A stretch of DNA of 44,464 bases from a virus. How positions within the stretch are numbered: the stretch's first letter is position 1; each line of letters starts with the position of its first letter. The notes under the pieces were generated by a model that saw nothing but the letters and a program-made list of their open reading frames with translations, ran no database searches and had not been told where the DNA came from. Shown one piece after another: positions 19,305 through 24,677 of the stretch. The position numbers were made by a program, and so were the translations under genes. The stretch is from UHGV virus genome UHGV-0192852; one strand, 5' to 3'.

Positions 19305-19898
19305 TTATTTAAGTGCGCTAGTCACCAGTGTTTTTTCCATGTTGCGGAAGTCTTCCGGCGTCATGAGAATTTGGGACCCGTCTTCGCCAGTGTGCACGAC
19401 CATAGGCTGGACGTCCAGGGCTACAGCACCGAAATTAGCGGCTTTAACAGTCTTTCCGAACGAGGCAACCGTATCCTCGGCAACGCGCATTGCACTGTTA
19501 TATGCATTGATCCCGCCATCCAGGCGCACGGACAGGTCCGAAGGCTTGAACGCGCCGCCGGTCTTGATAGGCCAACCCTTGAGGCTGTCGAATTGCGCTG
19601 CCGTTGTATCGATCTGAATCTCGTCATGCACGGTCATGTAAGACTCGCCCAGCAGTGCGGCATACGCAACCAGGTCCACGATGTTATCTTCCTTATGCTT
19701 GCGGTGCTGGCGCACCAGCTTCAGGCAGATCAGGAAGGTCCATGCTTCTTGCTCGGTCAGATCGCGACCGGTAAGCGCGTTAAACACGGCAGCTACTTGA
19801 CCTGCGACGCGTTCCTCTTTTGCGCCGTCATAGCCGTTTTCTTTCCCGCGCTGTTCCATAGTGGTGGCGGCGTTCTGGCAATATTCGTATGCTTTCAT
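19305..19898 (-). CDS. hypothetical protein
   Basis: ATG at 19898 (MKAYEY...) with AAAGGAAAAC upstream; track ORF extends to 19988 but overlaps the upstream gene. Confidence 0.5.
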   Translation of the reverse strand: MKAYEYCQNAATTMEQRGKENGYDGAKEERVAGQVAAVFNALTGRDLTEQEAWTFLICLKLVRQHRKHKEDNIVDLVAYAALLGESYMTVHDEIQIDTTAAQFDSLKGWPIKTGGAFKPSDLSVRLDGGINAYNSAMRVAEDTVASFGKTVKAANFGAVALDVQPMVVHTGEDGSQILMTPEDFRNMEKTLVTSALK

Positions 19899-19952
19899 GA
19901 TGTTTTCCTTTTTAGTGGGAGGCAATACCGCCTCCCGACGAGTTAAATATAG

Positions 19953-19974
19953 TGCAACCAACCTATTGGTTGCA
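19953..19974. promoter_or_regulatory. perfect 22-bp palindromic operator-like site
   Basis: TGCAACCAA-CCTA-TTGGTTGCA; on minus strand followed by CTATATT (-10-like) upstream of gene 19305..19898. Confidence 0.6.
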
Positions 19975-20433
19975 AGTGAATTTTGCAACGTTTATCGCGT
20001 AAATTTTCGGGACCAAATCTCCGCACGCCCGACGAATTGCCGCGATGTTCTTCTCGCAATCTTCAATGATGACCAGTTCCGACACGTCCGCATAGCAGAC
20101 CATTTTGAACACGGCGCACGCCTTAAACTCTGGCGGCGGGGTATCGTCCAGCATGTGGCGCATAAACAACCGGCCTGTCGGGAATACTTCCAGTTGTTCG
20201 GCGGTGGTGTCCCAACATTCTCGCTGCCGGTTGGTCAGATACGCGATCTCGAAGCCTTGCTCTTTATACATGCGCAACAACGGCAGCATATCCATGTTCA
20301 GTTCTTCGCGGACGTGCGCTTTGTGCCACTTCGCCCAAAAGGTGGATTTAGTTTTTATCCCAGGCACCAGGTCGGCACGGGCATCGCTTGAACCGTTAAT
20401 AACGCCATCCAAATCGCAAATCAGTAATTTCAT
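19963..20433 (-). CDS. HAD-superfamily phosphatase (putative nucleotidase / polynucleotide 3'-phosphatase-like)
   Basis: N-terminal LICDLDGVI matches HAD motif I (DxDG). Confidence 0.55.
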   Translation of the reverse strand: MKLLICDLDGVINGSSDARADLVPGIKTKSTFWAKWHKAHVREELNMDMLPLLRMYKEQGFEIAYLTNRQRECWDTTAEQLEVFPTGRLFMRHMLDDTPPPEFKACAVFKMVCYADVSELVIIEDCEKNIAAIRRACGDLVPKIYAINVAKFTCNQ

Positions 20434-20654
20434 TTCAATTCCTCAATCAAATTTGCACGAACAGTACGGGCGGAAAACGTGTCACACACAAGATGACAGC
20501 GGGCAGTCATTACAAGCCAGCCAGTAAGGTCCATGCCCAGGATGTGTTCAGGCCGTGACACGCGACGCACTTTGTTCTCCCTCGGGTTGATTTGGTAGCG
20601 TTTAACAATTTCGTCCACGACGCGCATACTGCGATCAACGATTAAGATATTCAC
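20430..20654 (-). CDS. hypothetical protein
   Basis: 74-aa ORF, GTG start with AAGGAGAA RBS; overlaps 3' end of Dam gene. Confidence 0.45.
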   Translation of the reverse strand: MNILIVDRSMRVVDEIVKRYQINPRENKVRRVSRPEHILGMDLTGWLVMTARCHLVCDTFSARTVRANLIEELK

Positions 20655-21120
20655 GTAGTTCTCCTTCGCTCATTATTTCAATTTGTGCGCTGCCGGTGGG
20701 TGGCGCCTCGTCAAAGATTATCAATTGCTGGCACTTGTTATTGCTCGGCCCGACTTCACCGGTCACAGCATGGATGAATCGTATCCGCCAGTCCAGAAGA
20801 ATTATCAGGTTTGCAGTCTTCCGGGCCAGCTTCGCCCACTTAGTCGACGTGTCCTGATTCAGTAGCATGACAGTCTGGCGACCGTGCGCTGCGCATTCCA
20901 CCCACGGCAGCGGATCGGAGTATGGCGGATTGCACCACTTCCACCCCTTCAACTCTGACCAGTCCACATCAAGCGCGCTGCGATCTGCCGTGAAGTAACG
21001 CGGTAGCAGATGATTGGCATCGCTCGCCGCCATGTCATAACGGAATCGGTACTTCCGGCGCAGCGGTTTAAATAAAGCTGGTGGCGTGCGCCAGCTATCC
21101 TTTTGTTCATTCTCAGTCAT
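20635..21120 (-). CDS. dam: DNA N6-adenine methyltransferase (phage Dam family)
   Basis: WRTPP...F...DMAASDANH...WCNPPY motifs typical of phage Dam MTases; ATG 21120 overlaps upstream stop (ATGA). Confidence 0.75.
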   Translation of the reverse strand: MTENEQKDSWRTPPALFKPLRRKYRFRYDMAASDANHLLPRYFTADRSALDVDWSELKGWKWCNPPYSDPLPWVECAAHGRQTVMLLNQDTSTKWAKLARKTANLIILLDWRIRFIHAVTGEVGPSNNKCQQLIIFDEAPPTGSAQIEIMSEGELREYLNR

Positions 21121-21413
21121 ACGGACAACACGGGCGGAAATCGCACGTACTCCTCGGCGCGCTTGCAATGTTCACGTAGGCCTTCTGCTGTGATGCGGTT
21201 TAACGCAACGCTGGTTGTGTATCCTGTGCGCTGCATAATCCCCATCAATTCGAAAAGTAGTTCGAAGCGCTCCTCTAACTCCTTGCGTACCTTCTTCTCG
21301 CCTTCGTAGCTCGCAAGGTGGGCGTCTGCCAGCGCGTTAGCGCGTTCGGCCTGTTCGCGGGCTTCGAGGCATTGCGCGGCCCAGTAATTTTTCTCTTCTT
21401 GTAAGATTTTCAT
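21117..21413 (-). CDS. hypothetical protein
   Basis: 98-aa ORF with GGAGACAA RBS downstream of promoter 21461..21489. Confidence 0.5.
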   Translation of the reverse strand: MKILQEEKNYWAAQCLEAREQAERANALADAHLASYEGEKKVRKELEERFELLFELMGIMQRTGYTTSVALNRITAEGLREHCKRAEEYVRFPPVLSV

Positions 21414-21494: not shown

Positions 21495-21812
21495 TTACGA
21501 ATAAAAATTTGGGTCGCGCGCAACGTCTACCAGATACAGGTTACTAATGCGGTTGCCGTAATGACCTGGTGTGCGTTGACGGCACACTACGGCATAGCCT
21601 GGAGGGATTGTATTGCCAGTCTCAATAATCCACGCCACGCGTGCGCCGGATAGCGTCTTGCCGTTGTATTCGATACGAGTACCGCCATCGGCAGTGTTAA
21701 GGTTGCCGATCTTGCAGCCTGTGGACTTCAGGCGAATGACGCCGGTCTTGCTGTCGTAGGAAAAAAGCTGATTGGTCATTGCCACTGAAAAGTCGATGGC
21801 TTCGAATGTCAT
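21495..21812 (-). CDS. HNH-family-like protein (NUMOD4/HNH_3-like, apparently degenerate)
   Basis: YDSKTGVIRLK...GARVAWIIETG...NRISNLYLV resembles HNH_3 homing endonucleases, but the expected catalytic His (HIDG) is replaced by RTPGHYG; ATGA overlap with upstream gene. Confidence 0.4.
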   Translation of the reverse strand: MTFEAIDFSVAMTNQLFSYDSKTGVIRLKSTGCKIGNLNTADGGTRIEYNGKTLSGARVAWIIETGNTIPPGYAVVCRQRTPGHYGNRISNLYLVDVARDPNFYS

Positions 21813-22504
21813 TTTAAATTTTCCTCATTTACCGCTATTGCAAAGCCGCGCGGAGTGAGCGACCGGATTAATTTGGTGCGGGCAGATTTGCCTCCGAGGC
21901 GACTATACTGCTTCGAGTACCCATTTTCAACGAAAACAGGTTTCTTCTCTGGCATACGGAAGCCGTTGCCGGTCCATAAGCAGGTCAGCTTCGGATATGA
22001 ATCGCGGGCGTTGATGTATTCCGGGAATAACGGGTGCACGTCATCCTCCGGCAGATATCCACCATACTCCCACGGGTCAAACGAGTGGTCCGGCTTGCGC
22101 CATTGGGTCGATAGCACGCTGCGCGGATTCTCAATCATATATGGCACTTCGAAGAAGTCACCCAGAAAAGCGGCAATCTTCGCGGTGCGCACCGCCTTAA
22201 GCTGAAAGGCCGGGTCTTTGGCCCGCTTGCGCGGGAAAGCTGGCGCACCGCTAACTGCCAGATCCGTACACGGCGGGAACGCATATATGATATCCGGCGT
22301 ACCGAAATCGCCATTCATCGCGCGGTCTACAAAGTCCAGATCAATAAACGCATTGCGATATCGGATCCCGCGACCATAAATCCGGTAGTCCTGGTAAGAC
22401 CCATGATCGGCTTCGGAGTAGTTGAAACAGTAGCATTTGTGCCCCATTTCGGCAGCACGCTCTACCATCAAGCCGCTGCCGTCGAACAATGACCAAAGTA
22501 TCAT
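21809..22504 (-). CDS. putative SAM-dependent DNA methyltransferase with C5-cytosine-MTase-like motifs (short form)
   Basis: motif I-like LFDGSG, motif IV-like FPPCTD (Pro-Cys), motif VI-like IENP; only 231 aa; ATGA overlap with helicase stop. Confidence 0.45.
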   Translation of the reverse strand: MILWSLFDGSGLMVERAAEMGHKCYCFNYSEADHGSYQDYRIYGRGIRYRNAFIDLDFVDRAMNGDFGTPDIIYAFPPCTDLAVSGAPAFPRKRAKDPAFQLKAVRTAKIAAFLGDFFEVPYMIENPRSVLSTQWRKPDHSFDPWEYGGYLPEDDVHPLFPEYINARDSYPKLTCLWTGNGFRMPEKKPVFVENGYSKQYSRLGGKSARTKLIRSLTPRGFAIAVNEENLK

Positions 22505-23925
22505 TTGCGCCCCTTCTTAGCTTTCATGTATTCCATCAAGTCGTCCTGAATATTGCGCTTACTGTCGCGACGTTTGGCGACAAGTTCGTCCAGTGTCCCG
22601 CGCGCCTGGATAATGTAGACGAACACCGGACGAGGGTGCCCGGCTTGCATCTGTCGAACTGGCCCGATACGCTCCACAATCTGCGCAAAGTGCTCATAGT
22701 TCCACGTATCCGAGAAGATTGCCAGATGATGACCTCCGTCCTGCAGGTTAAGGCCGTGACCGGCAGATGCCGGGTGTGCGAACATGATGGGAATCTCACC
22801 CCTGTTCCACGCCTCCATATCCTTGATACCCTGCTTACCTTTGCCCAGCGCTACGCCGTGCGGGAATTTCTTCTTGAGACGTGCCAGGTCATGCTTGTAC
22901 TGGTACGCAACGAGCAACGGGGCGCCGTTCAACTCCTCTACGATACTCTCCAGCGCGTCCAGCTTGGCGTCGTGAATCTTCTCCCACTCGTCGGTCCGTT
23001 CGCCGTCTTCGTCCACCTTATACACGGCACCGGATGCGAGCTGGAGGCACTTGACGGTCTTCGCCGCAGCGTTTGCCGCTTCTACCGTTCCGCTTTCCAG
23101 TTCGGCGAATAGTTCAGCCTCAAACTGGTCGTAAATCTTGCGGGCTTTCTTCGGCAGGTCCACAACAACCGGCGTATAGATTGGCTTGTCGCATCCGAAG
23201 TATTCAGCCGCGTCAACGGTAAGGGAAACGTCGGACAGACGTTGTTGTATTTCTTTCTCGGAGTTCTTTAGCGGAGCGTGCTGCATAGTGAAGCTGCCAG
23301 GCTTAACAGGCTTGCTAATGAACCAGCGGTCGGTAAATGCCTTATAGCTACTGCCTAGGCGTTCGCCACCGTCGACAAACCACGTCTGACCCCATAAGTC
23401 TTTCAGCCCGTTTGGCGCTGGTGTGCCGGTAAGGTTAATCCAGCGCTTGACGTGCTTATGAGCAATCGCTGCCAGTGCTCGGGCGCGCTTACTTCCCTGC
23501 TTGCTACGATAGCCTTTCAGCTTAGTCGATTCATCGGCAACAACGACCGTAAAGGGCCACGCATCGCCGTAATAGTCTACCAGCCACTCAACCACATCGT
23601 AGTTAACACAAACCACGTTAGCGTCGCTCTCAAGCGCTGCGATACGGTCCTTCTCCGGCCCAGTGCCGTCTACGACCAGCAGGGATGAGAACCGCCATTT
23701 CTCCTGCTCCGGGGGCCATGTACCCGACGCAACACGCAGCGGGGCCAGCACCAGTACGCGGTCCTCATGATGGGACAGGACGCCAGTCTGGAACATTTTA
23801 TTCAGCGCCCACATTGTCGCGCCGGTTTTACCGGATCCCATTGTCGCCCAGATATTACATCGCTTATGCTTGAGGATGAACGCGGTTATCAACTTCTGAT
23901 ATTCGCGGCGTCGGAATCGTGCCAT
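22501..23925 (-). CDS. SF2 ATP-dependent helicase (SNF2/DEAD-like)
   Basis: Walker A MGSGKTGAT, DEAD-like VVADESTKL, conserved C-terminal helicase motifs; ATG 23925 (MARFRRRE) chosen to avoid overlap with upstream ORF. Confidence 0.8.
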   Translation of the reverse strand: MARFRRREYQKLITAFILKHKRCNIWATMGSGKTGATMWALNKMFQTGVLSHHEDRVLVLAPLRVASGTWPPEQEKWRFSSLLVVDGTGPEKDRIAALESDANVVCVNYDVVEWLVDYYGDAWPFTVVVADESTKLKGYRSKQGSKRARALAAIAHKHVKRWINLTGTPAPNGLKDLWGQTWFVDGGERLGSSYKAFTDRWFISKPVKPGSFTMQHAPLKNSEKEIQQRLSDVSLTVDAAEYFGCDKPIYTPVVVDLPKKARKIYDQFEAELFAELESGTVEAANAAAKTVKCLQLASGAVYKVDEDGERTDEWEKIHDAKLDALESIVEELNGAPLLVAYQYKHDLARLKKKFPHGVALGKGKQGIKDMEAWNRGEIPIMFAHPASAGHGLNLQDGGHHLAIFSDTWNYEHFAQIVERIGPVRQMQAGHPRPVFVYIIQARGTLDELVAKRRDSKRNIQDDLMEYMKAKKGRK

Positions 23926-23929
23926 GTCG

Positions 23930-24154
23930 TTATTCCGCCTTTTTCCAGACTTCGGTTTCACTGTTCCAGTTCCTTTTTGTGGCGTCGTAGTTGGTGGCGT
24001 GTCCGATGTGCACACCGGTAGCCCGGAAGCTCTTAAATTTTTGCCAGCACACCGTCAACGGCAGCGGATCATTCATGCCCGCAATAAACCATACGCGATC
24101 GCCCGGTTTACATTCGCCCAGCTTGGTGAGTCGGTAATGTTCTTTCATCGTCAT
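23930..24154 (-). CDS. hypothetical protein
   Basis: 74-aa ORF between terminator 24163..24185 and helicase. Confidence 0.45.
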   Translation of the reverse strand: MTMKEHYRLTKLGECKPGDRVWFIAGMNDPLPLTVCWQKFKSFRATGVHIGHATNYDATKRNWNSETEVWKKAE

Positions 24155-24398: not shown

Positions 24399-24677
24399 CT
24401 ATGCGACCAATTCGGCAACCAATAAATCACAGTCGGCTATGTTGTCAATGACGCGAACATCAGCACCGCGGCGTACCATTCGATCATGTTCACGTACCTG
24501 GTGCGGCCTCGGTTTGCCGCCAGGGCGCTTCACTTCTACGAATACCACTTTGCCGTTTATGATTATAATCAGGTCGGGCGCGCCTGAGCGCCCCTCCCAT
24601 ATCACCTTACGGCAGAATCCGCCAACCGCTTTCACCAGCTTCATCAGGTGACTTTGTACCTTGCCTTCTGGTGTCAT
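24399..24677 (-). CDS. VRR-NUC domain nuclease
   Basis: GAPDLIIIINGKVVFVEVKRPGGKPRPHQ matches PD-(D/E)xK VRR-NUC core (D...E.K...Q). Confidence 0.7.
   Translation of the reverse strand: MTPEGKVQSHLMKLVKAVGGFCRKVIWEGRSGAPDLIIIINGKVVFVEVKRPGGKPRPHQVREHDRMVRRGADVRVIDNIADCDLLVAELVA

Follow-up and report, generated by a model that had tools for sequence, protein, structure and literature searches.

A compact Dcm-like C5-cytosine methyltransferase gene in the replication module of a Dhillonvirus coliphage

We examined a gene on the minus strand of the viral genome UHGV-0192852, a stretch of 44,464 nucleotides that we refer to as the window. The gene encodes a protein of 231 amino acids that is a clear member of PHROG 757, a compact phage family of "Dcm-like" DNA C5-cytosine methyltransferases (MTases). 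An initial annotation, made from the letters alone, had placed the protein correctly at 21809-22504, although it did not state the strand. The window belongs to a Dhillonvirus coliphage, and the 3.5-kb region around the MTase shared 91-92% DNA identity with 142 Dhillonvirus genomes, including those of Sodalis phage SO-1, SECphi18 and StarDew. The gene lies within a minus-strand block, the replication module or operon of the phage, that runs from a family-A DNA polymerase through a VRR-NUC nuclease, a helicase, the MTase, an HNH-like protein and Dam to a polynucleotide kinase/phosphatase-like protein. The features of this region that we refer to below are as follows.

21809..22504, minus strand: Dcm-like DNA C5-cytosine MTase, 231 amino acids, ATG start
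22501..24015, minus strand: SNF2-family DNA helicase (Pfam PF00176 (SNF2-rel_dom), 2.4e-10; PHROG 62, 1.1e-157)
21495..21812, minus strand: HNH-like protein, 105 amino acids (PHROG 99 "HNH endonuclease", 1.5e-16, profile positions 108-198 of 383)
20635..21120/21168, minus strand: Dam-type N6-adenine DNA MTase (Pfam PF05869, 1.4e-35; PHROG 111, 3.1e-55; TIGR01712, 2.9e-24, below its cutoff)
24399..24677, minus strand: VRR-NUC nuclease (Pfam PF08774, 4.6e-06)
19963..20433, minus strand: polynucleotide kinase/HAD-phosphatase-like protein (PHROG 415, 1.1e-35)

The MTase matched the PHROG 757 profile ("DNA methyltransferase") over residues 1-229 with an E-value of 3.4e-81. A word-indexed search returned 2884 homologous proteins, and an exhaustive search returned 815 representative clusters at 50% identity with E<=1e-3 (369 at E<=1e-10), so the open reading frame is not a chance one. 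A tblastn search of 50,697 phage records matched 1533 of them, mainly from phages of Escherichia, Klebsiella, Salmonella and Shigella and spread over several lineages that are unrelated to each other (Dhillonvirus, Drexlerviridae, Vequintavirinae and Krischvirus). Classical C5-MTases are about 320-470 amino acids long, and next to them the protein is indeed unusually short, as had been claimed; within its own family it is not, the median length being 238 amino acids and the range 208-279 in 59 members. Several other family members (P0214, P0230 and P0255; 401-453 amino acids) carried N-terminal extensions of about 180 residues without a Pfam match, and scanning the longer members (292-453 amino acids) for fused domains gave zero Pfam matches. 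In the matches A0A6J5SE15 (1397 amino acids) and A0A6J5NPY6 (1126 amino acids), from uncultured phages in BFVD, the small MTase fold formed one segment of the protein; one of the two is named "Helicase/UvrB, N-terminal".

The initial annotation had proposed structure prediction as a check for a methyltransferase fold, and a C5-MTase fold was what we found; the refuting outcome that it had named, the lack of such a fold, did not come about. An AlphaFold2 model built on an alignment of 59 sequences had a mean predicted local distance difference test score of 93.3 and a predicted template modelling score of 0.91, with no disordered segment. When the model was compared with the PDB using Foldseek, all 50 matches listed were C5-MTases, with E-values from near 1e-6, and the best solved match was the catalytic domain of DNMT3A/DNMT3B. 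In a library of viral structures the nearest neighbours were family members named "DNA-cytosine methylase". The order of secondary-structure elements was that of the C5-MTase core (β1-αA-β2-β3-αC-β4, the PC loop, two helices, β5 with ENP, β6, β7 and a C-terminal helix), and on this model the protein has the DNA C5-MTase fold with its seven-stranded, Rossmann-like core, and resembles C5-MTases more closely than other enzymes that use S-adenosylmethionine or NAD.

The catalytic core accounts for 189 of the 231 residues. Some 30 conserved residues (143-173) separate β6 from β7, and the stretch from β7 (174-179) to the motif that begins at R214 is no more than a loop of about 35 residues (180-213) that resembles a target-recognition domain (TRD). 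With so few residues between β7 and that motif, there is no room for a classical TRD, and in the model a separate domain of this kind between motifs VIII and IX is absent, which bears out the suggestion that the protein was too short to hold one. Among the members from enterobacterial phages the loop has conserved flanks (LGGKSxRTKxIRSxTPRGF).

All three of the motifs that had been reported were found in the translation: motif I as LFDGSG at residues 6-11, motif IV as FPPCTD at 76-81, containing Cys79, and motif VI as IENP at 124-127, containing Glu125. The catalytic Pro-Cys (P78-C79) and E125-N126-P127 have the order and spacing of a C5-MTase and align with the PC and ENV of E. coli Dcm. We further recognized a motif VIII-like stretch, Y170-x-K172-x-T174-x-x-W177, and a motif IX/X-like stretch, R214-S-L-T-P-R-G-F-A-x-A-V225, in which the part resembling motif IX runs directly into motif X. 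We measured conservation in 59 full-length, diverse homologues that were 32-65% identical to the window MTase. Ten residues (Cys79, Gly86, Glu125, Pro127, Pro144, Tyr170, Lys172, Thr174, Trp177 and Pro185) were invariant in 59/59, and Thr80, Asn126, Arg214, Ser215, Pro218 and Gly220 were kept in at least 90%. The family signatures FPPC-T-D, E-N-P, Y-x-K-x-T-x-x-W and R-S-x-T-P-R-G-F, invariant or at least 90% conserved in the 59 members, are all present in the window MTase. The threonine noted earlier in place of the usual glutamine after the Pro-Cys is real, and with Thr80 in 57 of the 59 relatives it is a signature of the family.

Near-identical proteins are already on record. The orthologue in KarlBarth (Bas17 of the BASEL collection), bas17_0036, is 97.8% identical to the window MTase at the amino acid level and was deposited as a "Dcm-like C5 cytosine methyltransferase"; it stands in the same helicase-MTase-homing-endonuclease arrangement with 4-nt overlaps. 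Other Dhillonvirus orthologues (SO-1, SECphi18, StarDew) are labelled "cytosine specific methyltransferase" or "DNA methyltransferase", and some records read "hypothetical protein". Between the KarlBarth and other Dhillonvirus orthologues and the window MTase there are essentially no differences.

The most informative relative is the Dcm protein of KarlJaspers (Bas06) and its strain K42, bas06_0055, a Drexlerviridae protein of 236 amino acids encoded by 711 bp. It is 54% identical to the window MTase over its full length (E 2e-87) and shares the PCT, ENP, YxKxT and RSLTPRGF motifs. In the alignment the catalytic residues published for the K42 enzyme, C82, E128 and K175, fall precisely on C79, E125 and K172 of the window MTase, while its second substrate-binding lysine (K176) is replaced by Leu173. 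The K42 dcm gene is the published trigger of retron Ec86/Eco1 (bioRxiv 10.1101/2023.08.16.553469). All four escape mutants of KarlJaspers strain K42 that overcame retron Ec86 had lesions in the 711-bp dcm, and expression of K42 Dcm was toxic only when the retron was present (bioRxiv 10.1101/2023.08.16.553469). Liquid chromatography coupled to mass spectrometry (LC-MS) against a 5-methylcytosine (5mC) standard detected high 5mC in the multicopy single-stranded DNA (msDNA) of the retron with K42 Dcm, but not with the C82A/E128A/K175A/K176A mutant, and a change of CCTGG in the msDNA stem-loop abolished defence (bioRxiv 10.1101/2023.08.16.553469). Later papers treat the triggering of retron Ec86 by K42 Dcm as established.

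A second relative, gp52 of Pantoea phage AAS23 (235 amino acids, in a Drexlerviridae context), is 51% identical over residues 2-225 of the 231 in the window MTase (E 8e-80). BLASTP found no conserved domain in gp52, and HHpred matched it to a C5-MTase structure with 99.7% probability, from which it was published as a DNA cytosine MTase (PMC8004638). Restriction digests of AAS23 virion DNA indicated methylation of both the Dam and the Dcm type (PMC8004638).

More distant enzymes resemble the window MTase in part. The catalytic domain of DNMT3A/DNMT3B is only about 15% identical to it and is similarly poor in TRD. DNMT3 enzymes recognize CpG, form DNMT3L/DNMT3 tetramers and have large regulatory domains. 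The E. coli Dcm/M.EcoRII type (PF00145) differs in having a full TRD, Dcm being 472 amino acids long, and the window MTase has no detectable homology to that domain; the two probably share their chemistry and possibly their target site.

We conclude that the gene very probably encodes an active orphan DNA C5-MTase dependent on S-adenosylmethionine (SAM), its activity being judged from that of its relatives. For the target, we lean with limited confidence towards the inner cytosine of CCWGG, by analogy with the characterized relatives. The enzyme would be made from the minus-strand replication operon without a partner restriction enzyme, and its Rossmann-type core would bind SAM through the motif I loop. 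By analogy with established C5-MTase chemistry, the most likely mechanism is covalent: the target cytosine would be flipped out, Cys79 of the Pro-Cys motif would attack C6, Glu125 of the ENP motif would protonate N3, and the methyl group would pass from SAM to C5. DNA would be read by the loop at 180-213 together with the insert at 143-173, as in the TRD-poor catalytic domain of DNMT3. The most probable benefit would be that phage DNA is shielded from EcoRII-type restriction enzymes that cut CCWGG, with Dam shielding GATC in parallel. The presumable cost is that a Dcm-like enzyme would methylate the msDNA of retron Eco1 (Ec86) and so set off abortive infection, a cost that is documented for the K42 enzyme (bioRxiv 10.1101/2023.08.16.553469).

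A number of results weigh against this assignment. Scans of the window MTase against Pfam and NCBIfam gave zero matches, PF00145 included, and among the 59 relatives PF00145, the sole recurring Pfam family, was matched by 11, weakly (best 3e-4). The family profile searched against the PDB gave M.HaeIII at an E-value of 0.35, which was not significant, and a phmmer search of the single sequence against PDB sequences gave only a spurious kinase match (E 0.58). Aligned to E. coli Dcm with hhalign, the family profile covered query residues 5-134, that is, motifs I-VI only, with motifs I, IV and VI in register; the E-value of 0.13 was not significant, and it was for this reason that we turned to the evidence of the fold. 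Motif I is LFDGSG rather than the canonical FxGxG, the family consensus being LFDxS/TG with only the last glycine conserved (50/59) and Gly9 not, and the acidic position of motif II, Asp in 50 of the 59, is Asn28 in the window MTase. A literature search for methylomes of BASEL or Dhillonvirus phages, or for tests of retron Eco1 on a Dhillonvirus, found nothing direct.

The initial annotation had offered three functions: a minimal anti-restriction MTase, a base-modifying enzyme with a different specificity, or a homologue that is inactive. The fold, the invariant catalytic residues and the 54% and 51% identical homologues speak for the first. A homologue that has lost catalysis but is retained to bind DNA or to regulate, or else an RNA C5-MTase of the DNMT2 type, would fit the lack of any Pfam or NCBIfam match, the Asn28 and a motif I with one conserved glycine instead of two. 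Cys79 and the glutamate of motif VI are under strong constraint, which argues against inactivity, and the experimentally active K42 orthologue shares both the motif I loop and the asparagine at the motif II position; we consider a dead or RNA-directed enzyme highly unlikely. Least probable of all is a C5-MTase fold that transfers another group, for example carboxymethyl from carboxy-SAM to give a hypermodified cytosine. The structure 8yf3 scored no better than ordinary methyltransferases, the K42 enzyme gave its LC-MS signal against a 5mC standard, and in the neighbouring genes that we examined we saw no accessory gene that would serve the biosynthesis of another cofactor.

The target is the less secure part of the assignment. 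The CCWGG site of the K42 enzyme was assigned by analogy with the host Dcm and by mutagenesis of the msDNA, without site mapping (bioRxiv 10.1101/2023.08.16.553469). Likewise, the evidence from AAS23 is a restriction digest, which does not separate methylation by the phage from methylation by the host. In the absence of the phage enzyme, msDNA from dcm+ MG1655 contained little 5mC (bioRxiv 10.1101/2023.08.16.553469). Host and phage enzymes were thus not equivalent there, and substrate or site may not be the same for the phage enzyme as for Dcm. The window MTase and Dcm have no recognition domain in common, and in the centre of the TRD-like loop (about 186-203) the window MTase diverges from K42 Dcm. 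It is therefore possible, if rather doubtful, that the enzyme is an active C5-MTase with a specificity unlike that of the host Dcm, methylating the outer cytosine or a site that is shorter or degenerate, or preferring DNA in hairpin or single-stranded form, for example msDNA. The absence of a classical TRD, leaving short loops only, and of any detectable similarity to E. coli Dcm beyond the catalytic motifs would suit such an enzyme. Set against it are the loss of K42-dependent defence when the CCTGG of the msDNA was mutated, the Dcm-methylated behaviour of AAS23 DNA and the conserved flanks of the loop; overexpression alone, moreover, could account for the difference from host Dcm. A bolder and still more tentative idea, which we think unlikely, is that the PHROG 757 family represents the most reduced natural DNA C5-MTase architecture, in which two short conserved loops read a 5-bp site, a different or looser one, or hairpin or single-stranded DNA (retron msDNA being an example), with a specificity unlike that of host Dcm. 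If true, this would explain why retron Eco1 is triggered in dcm+ cells by the phage enzyme and not by host Dcm. We continue to favour CCWGG.

We also counted CCWGG in the window and found 144 sites, against 158 expected under a maximal-order Markov model. A first-order model had given a two-fold excess (144 against 70), which we rejected as an effect of the tetranucleotides CCAG and CTGG, since it was gone under the maximal-order model. The count is neutral, and site frequency is thus uninformative on specificity. In KarlJaspers (positions 1-50000), CCWGG was likewise near expectation (125 against 121), while CCCGG occurred 2 times and CCGGG 0 times where about 6 and 5 were expected under the maximal-order model; the numbers are small, and the scarcity of CCSGG is a hint that this phage avoids a restriction site of the CCSGG or CCNGG type.

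The coupling of the gene to its neighbours had been put forward as special. Both overlaps are present as described: the helicase stop and MTase start share an ATGA (TCAT on the plus strand at 22501-22504), as do the MTase stop and the HNH-like start (TCAT at 21809-21812), and a Shine-Dalgarno-like AAGGGG is visible by eye a few bases 5' of the MTase ATG. The 4-nt helicase-MTase-HNH overlaps are kept in other dhillonviruses (KarlBarth and bov22_1). Outside Dhillonvirus the contexts vary. In Vequintavirus the family gene precedes an unrelated primase/helicase and overlaps its 5' end, in Krischvirus it lies among small early genes, and in Drexlerviridae it is alone or two genes from a DUF3987 helicase; the dcm of K42/KarlJaspers stands alone among small genes, so that of the two phages only that of the window has the helicase overlap. 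We therefore rejected a functional helicase-MTase(-nuclease) system as a general feature, and the gene order favours reading the overlaps as compact operon packing of the replication module, conserved within Dhillonvirus. The picture of an unusual, specially coupled gene was not supported by this comparison: its short length is the family norm, it is annotated in near-identical genomes and the link to the helicase is kept within Dhillonvirus but not in the other phage groups.

The gene itself is already known: near-identical genomes carry it under the annotation of a Dcm-like C5 MTase, and it has a 54%-identical orthologue that is functionally characterized. The function of the family as DNA C5-MTase and trigger of retron Eco1 is published, and the gene carries little weight as a discovery. 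It is a large family, with about 800 clusters at 50% identity and members in more than 1500 phage genomes, yet Pfam and NCBIfam miss it, and for this reason many records still read "hypothetical protein". Among natural DNA C5-MTases the protein seems to rank with the smallest. Its presence would predict a phage that is resistant to CCWGG-cutting restriction enzymes and sensitive to retron Eco1, which would be useful in the choice of phage or host.

Among the neighbouring genes, the Dam MTase that had been noted nearby is genuine, as its PF05869 match attests, and is the second orphan MTase of the block. The VRR-NUC and polynucleotide kinase/phosphatase-like genes are ordinary parts of the Dhillonvirus replication module. 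The maximal open reading frame of the helicase is 504 amino acids, and the start annotated in relatives would give 474. The HNH-like protein shares 97% identity with its counterparts in KarlBarth and bov22_1; its match to Pfam HNH_3 was below threshold (0.046) and partial (profile positions 5-21 of 46). By eye, V-V-C-R-Q-R occupies the place expected for the catalytic His of the D-H motif, and the later N-x-x-x-N-L is kept; the protein may be an HNH remnant that has degenerated, does not cut and lacks the first catalytic His.

Two further labels in the region deserve caution. The reading frame at 21117..21413 (minus strand, 98 amino acids) matched PHROG 10530, "DNA ligase", at 6.7e-58 over profile positions 1-91 of 154 only. 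Its homologue is 459 bp long in bov22_1 and 465 bp in KarlBarth, and the window copy appears, from this comparison of lengths, to have lost some 160 bp from the 3' half. The annotator of bov22_1 described the homologue as "possible DNA ligase but no evidence", and the name ligase seems questionable. The protein at 19305..19988 (minus strand, 227 amino acids) has a DUF6378 domain (2.4e-08), and its PHROG relatives (phrog_474, 3.7e-18) are labelled "phosphofructokinase", a name that hardly seems to suit so small a protein of a phage.
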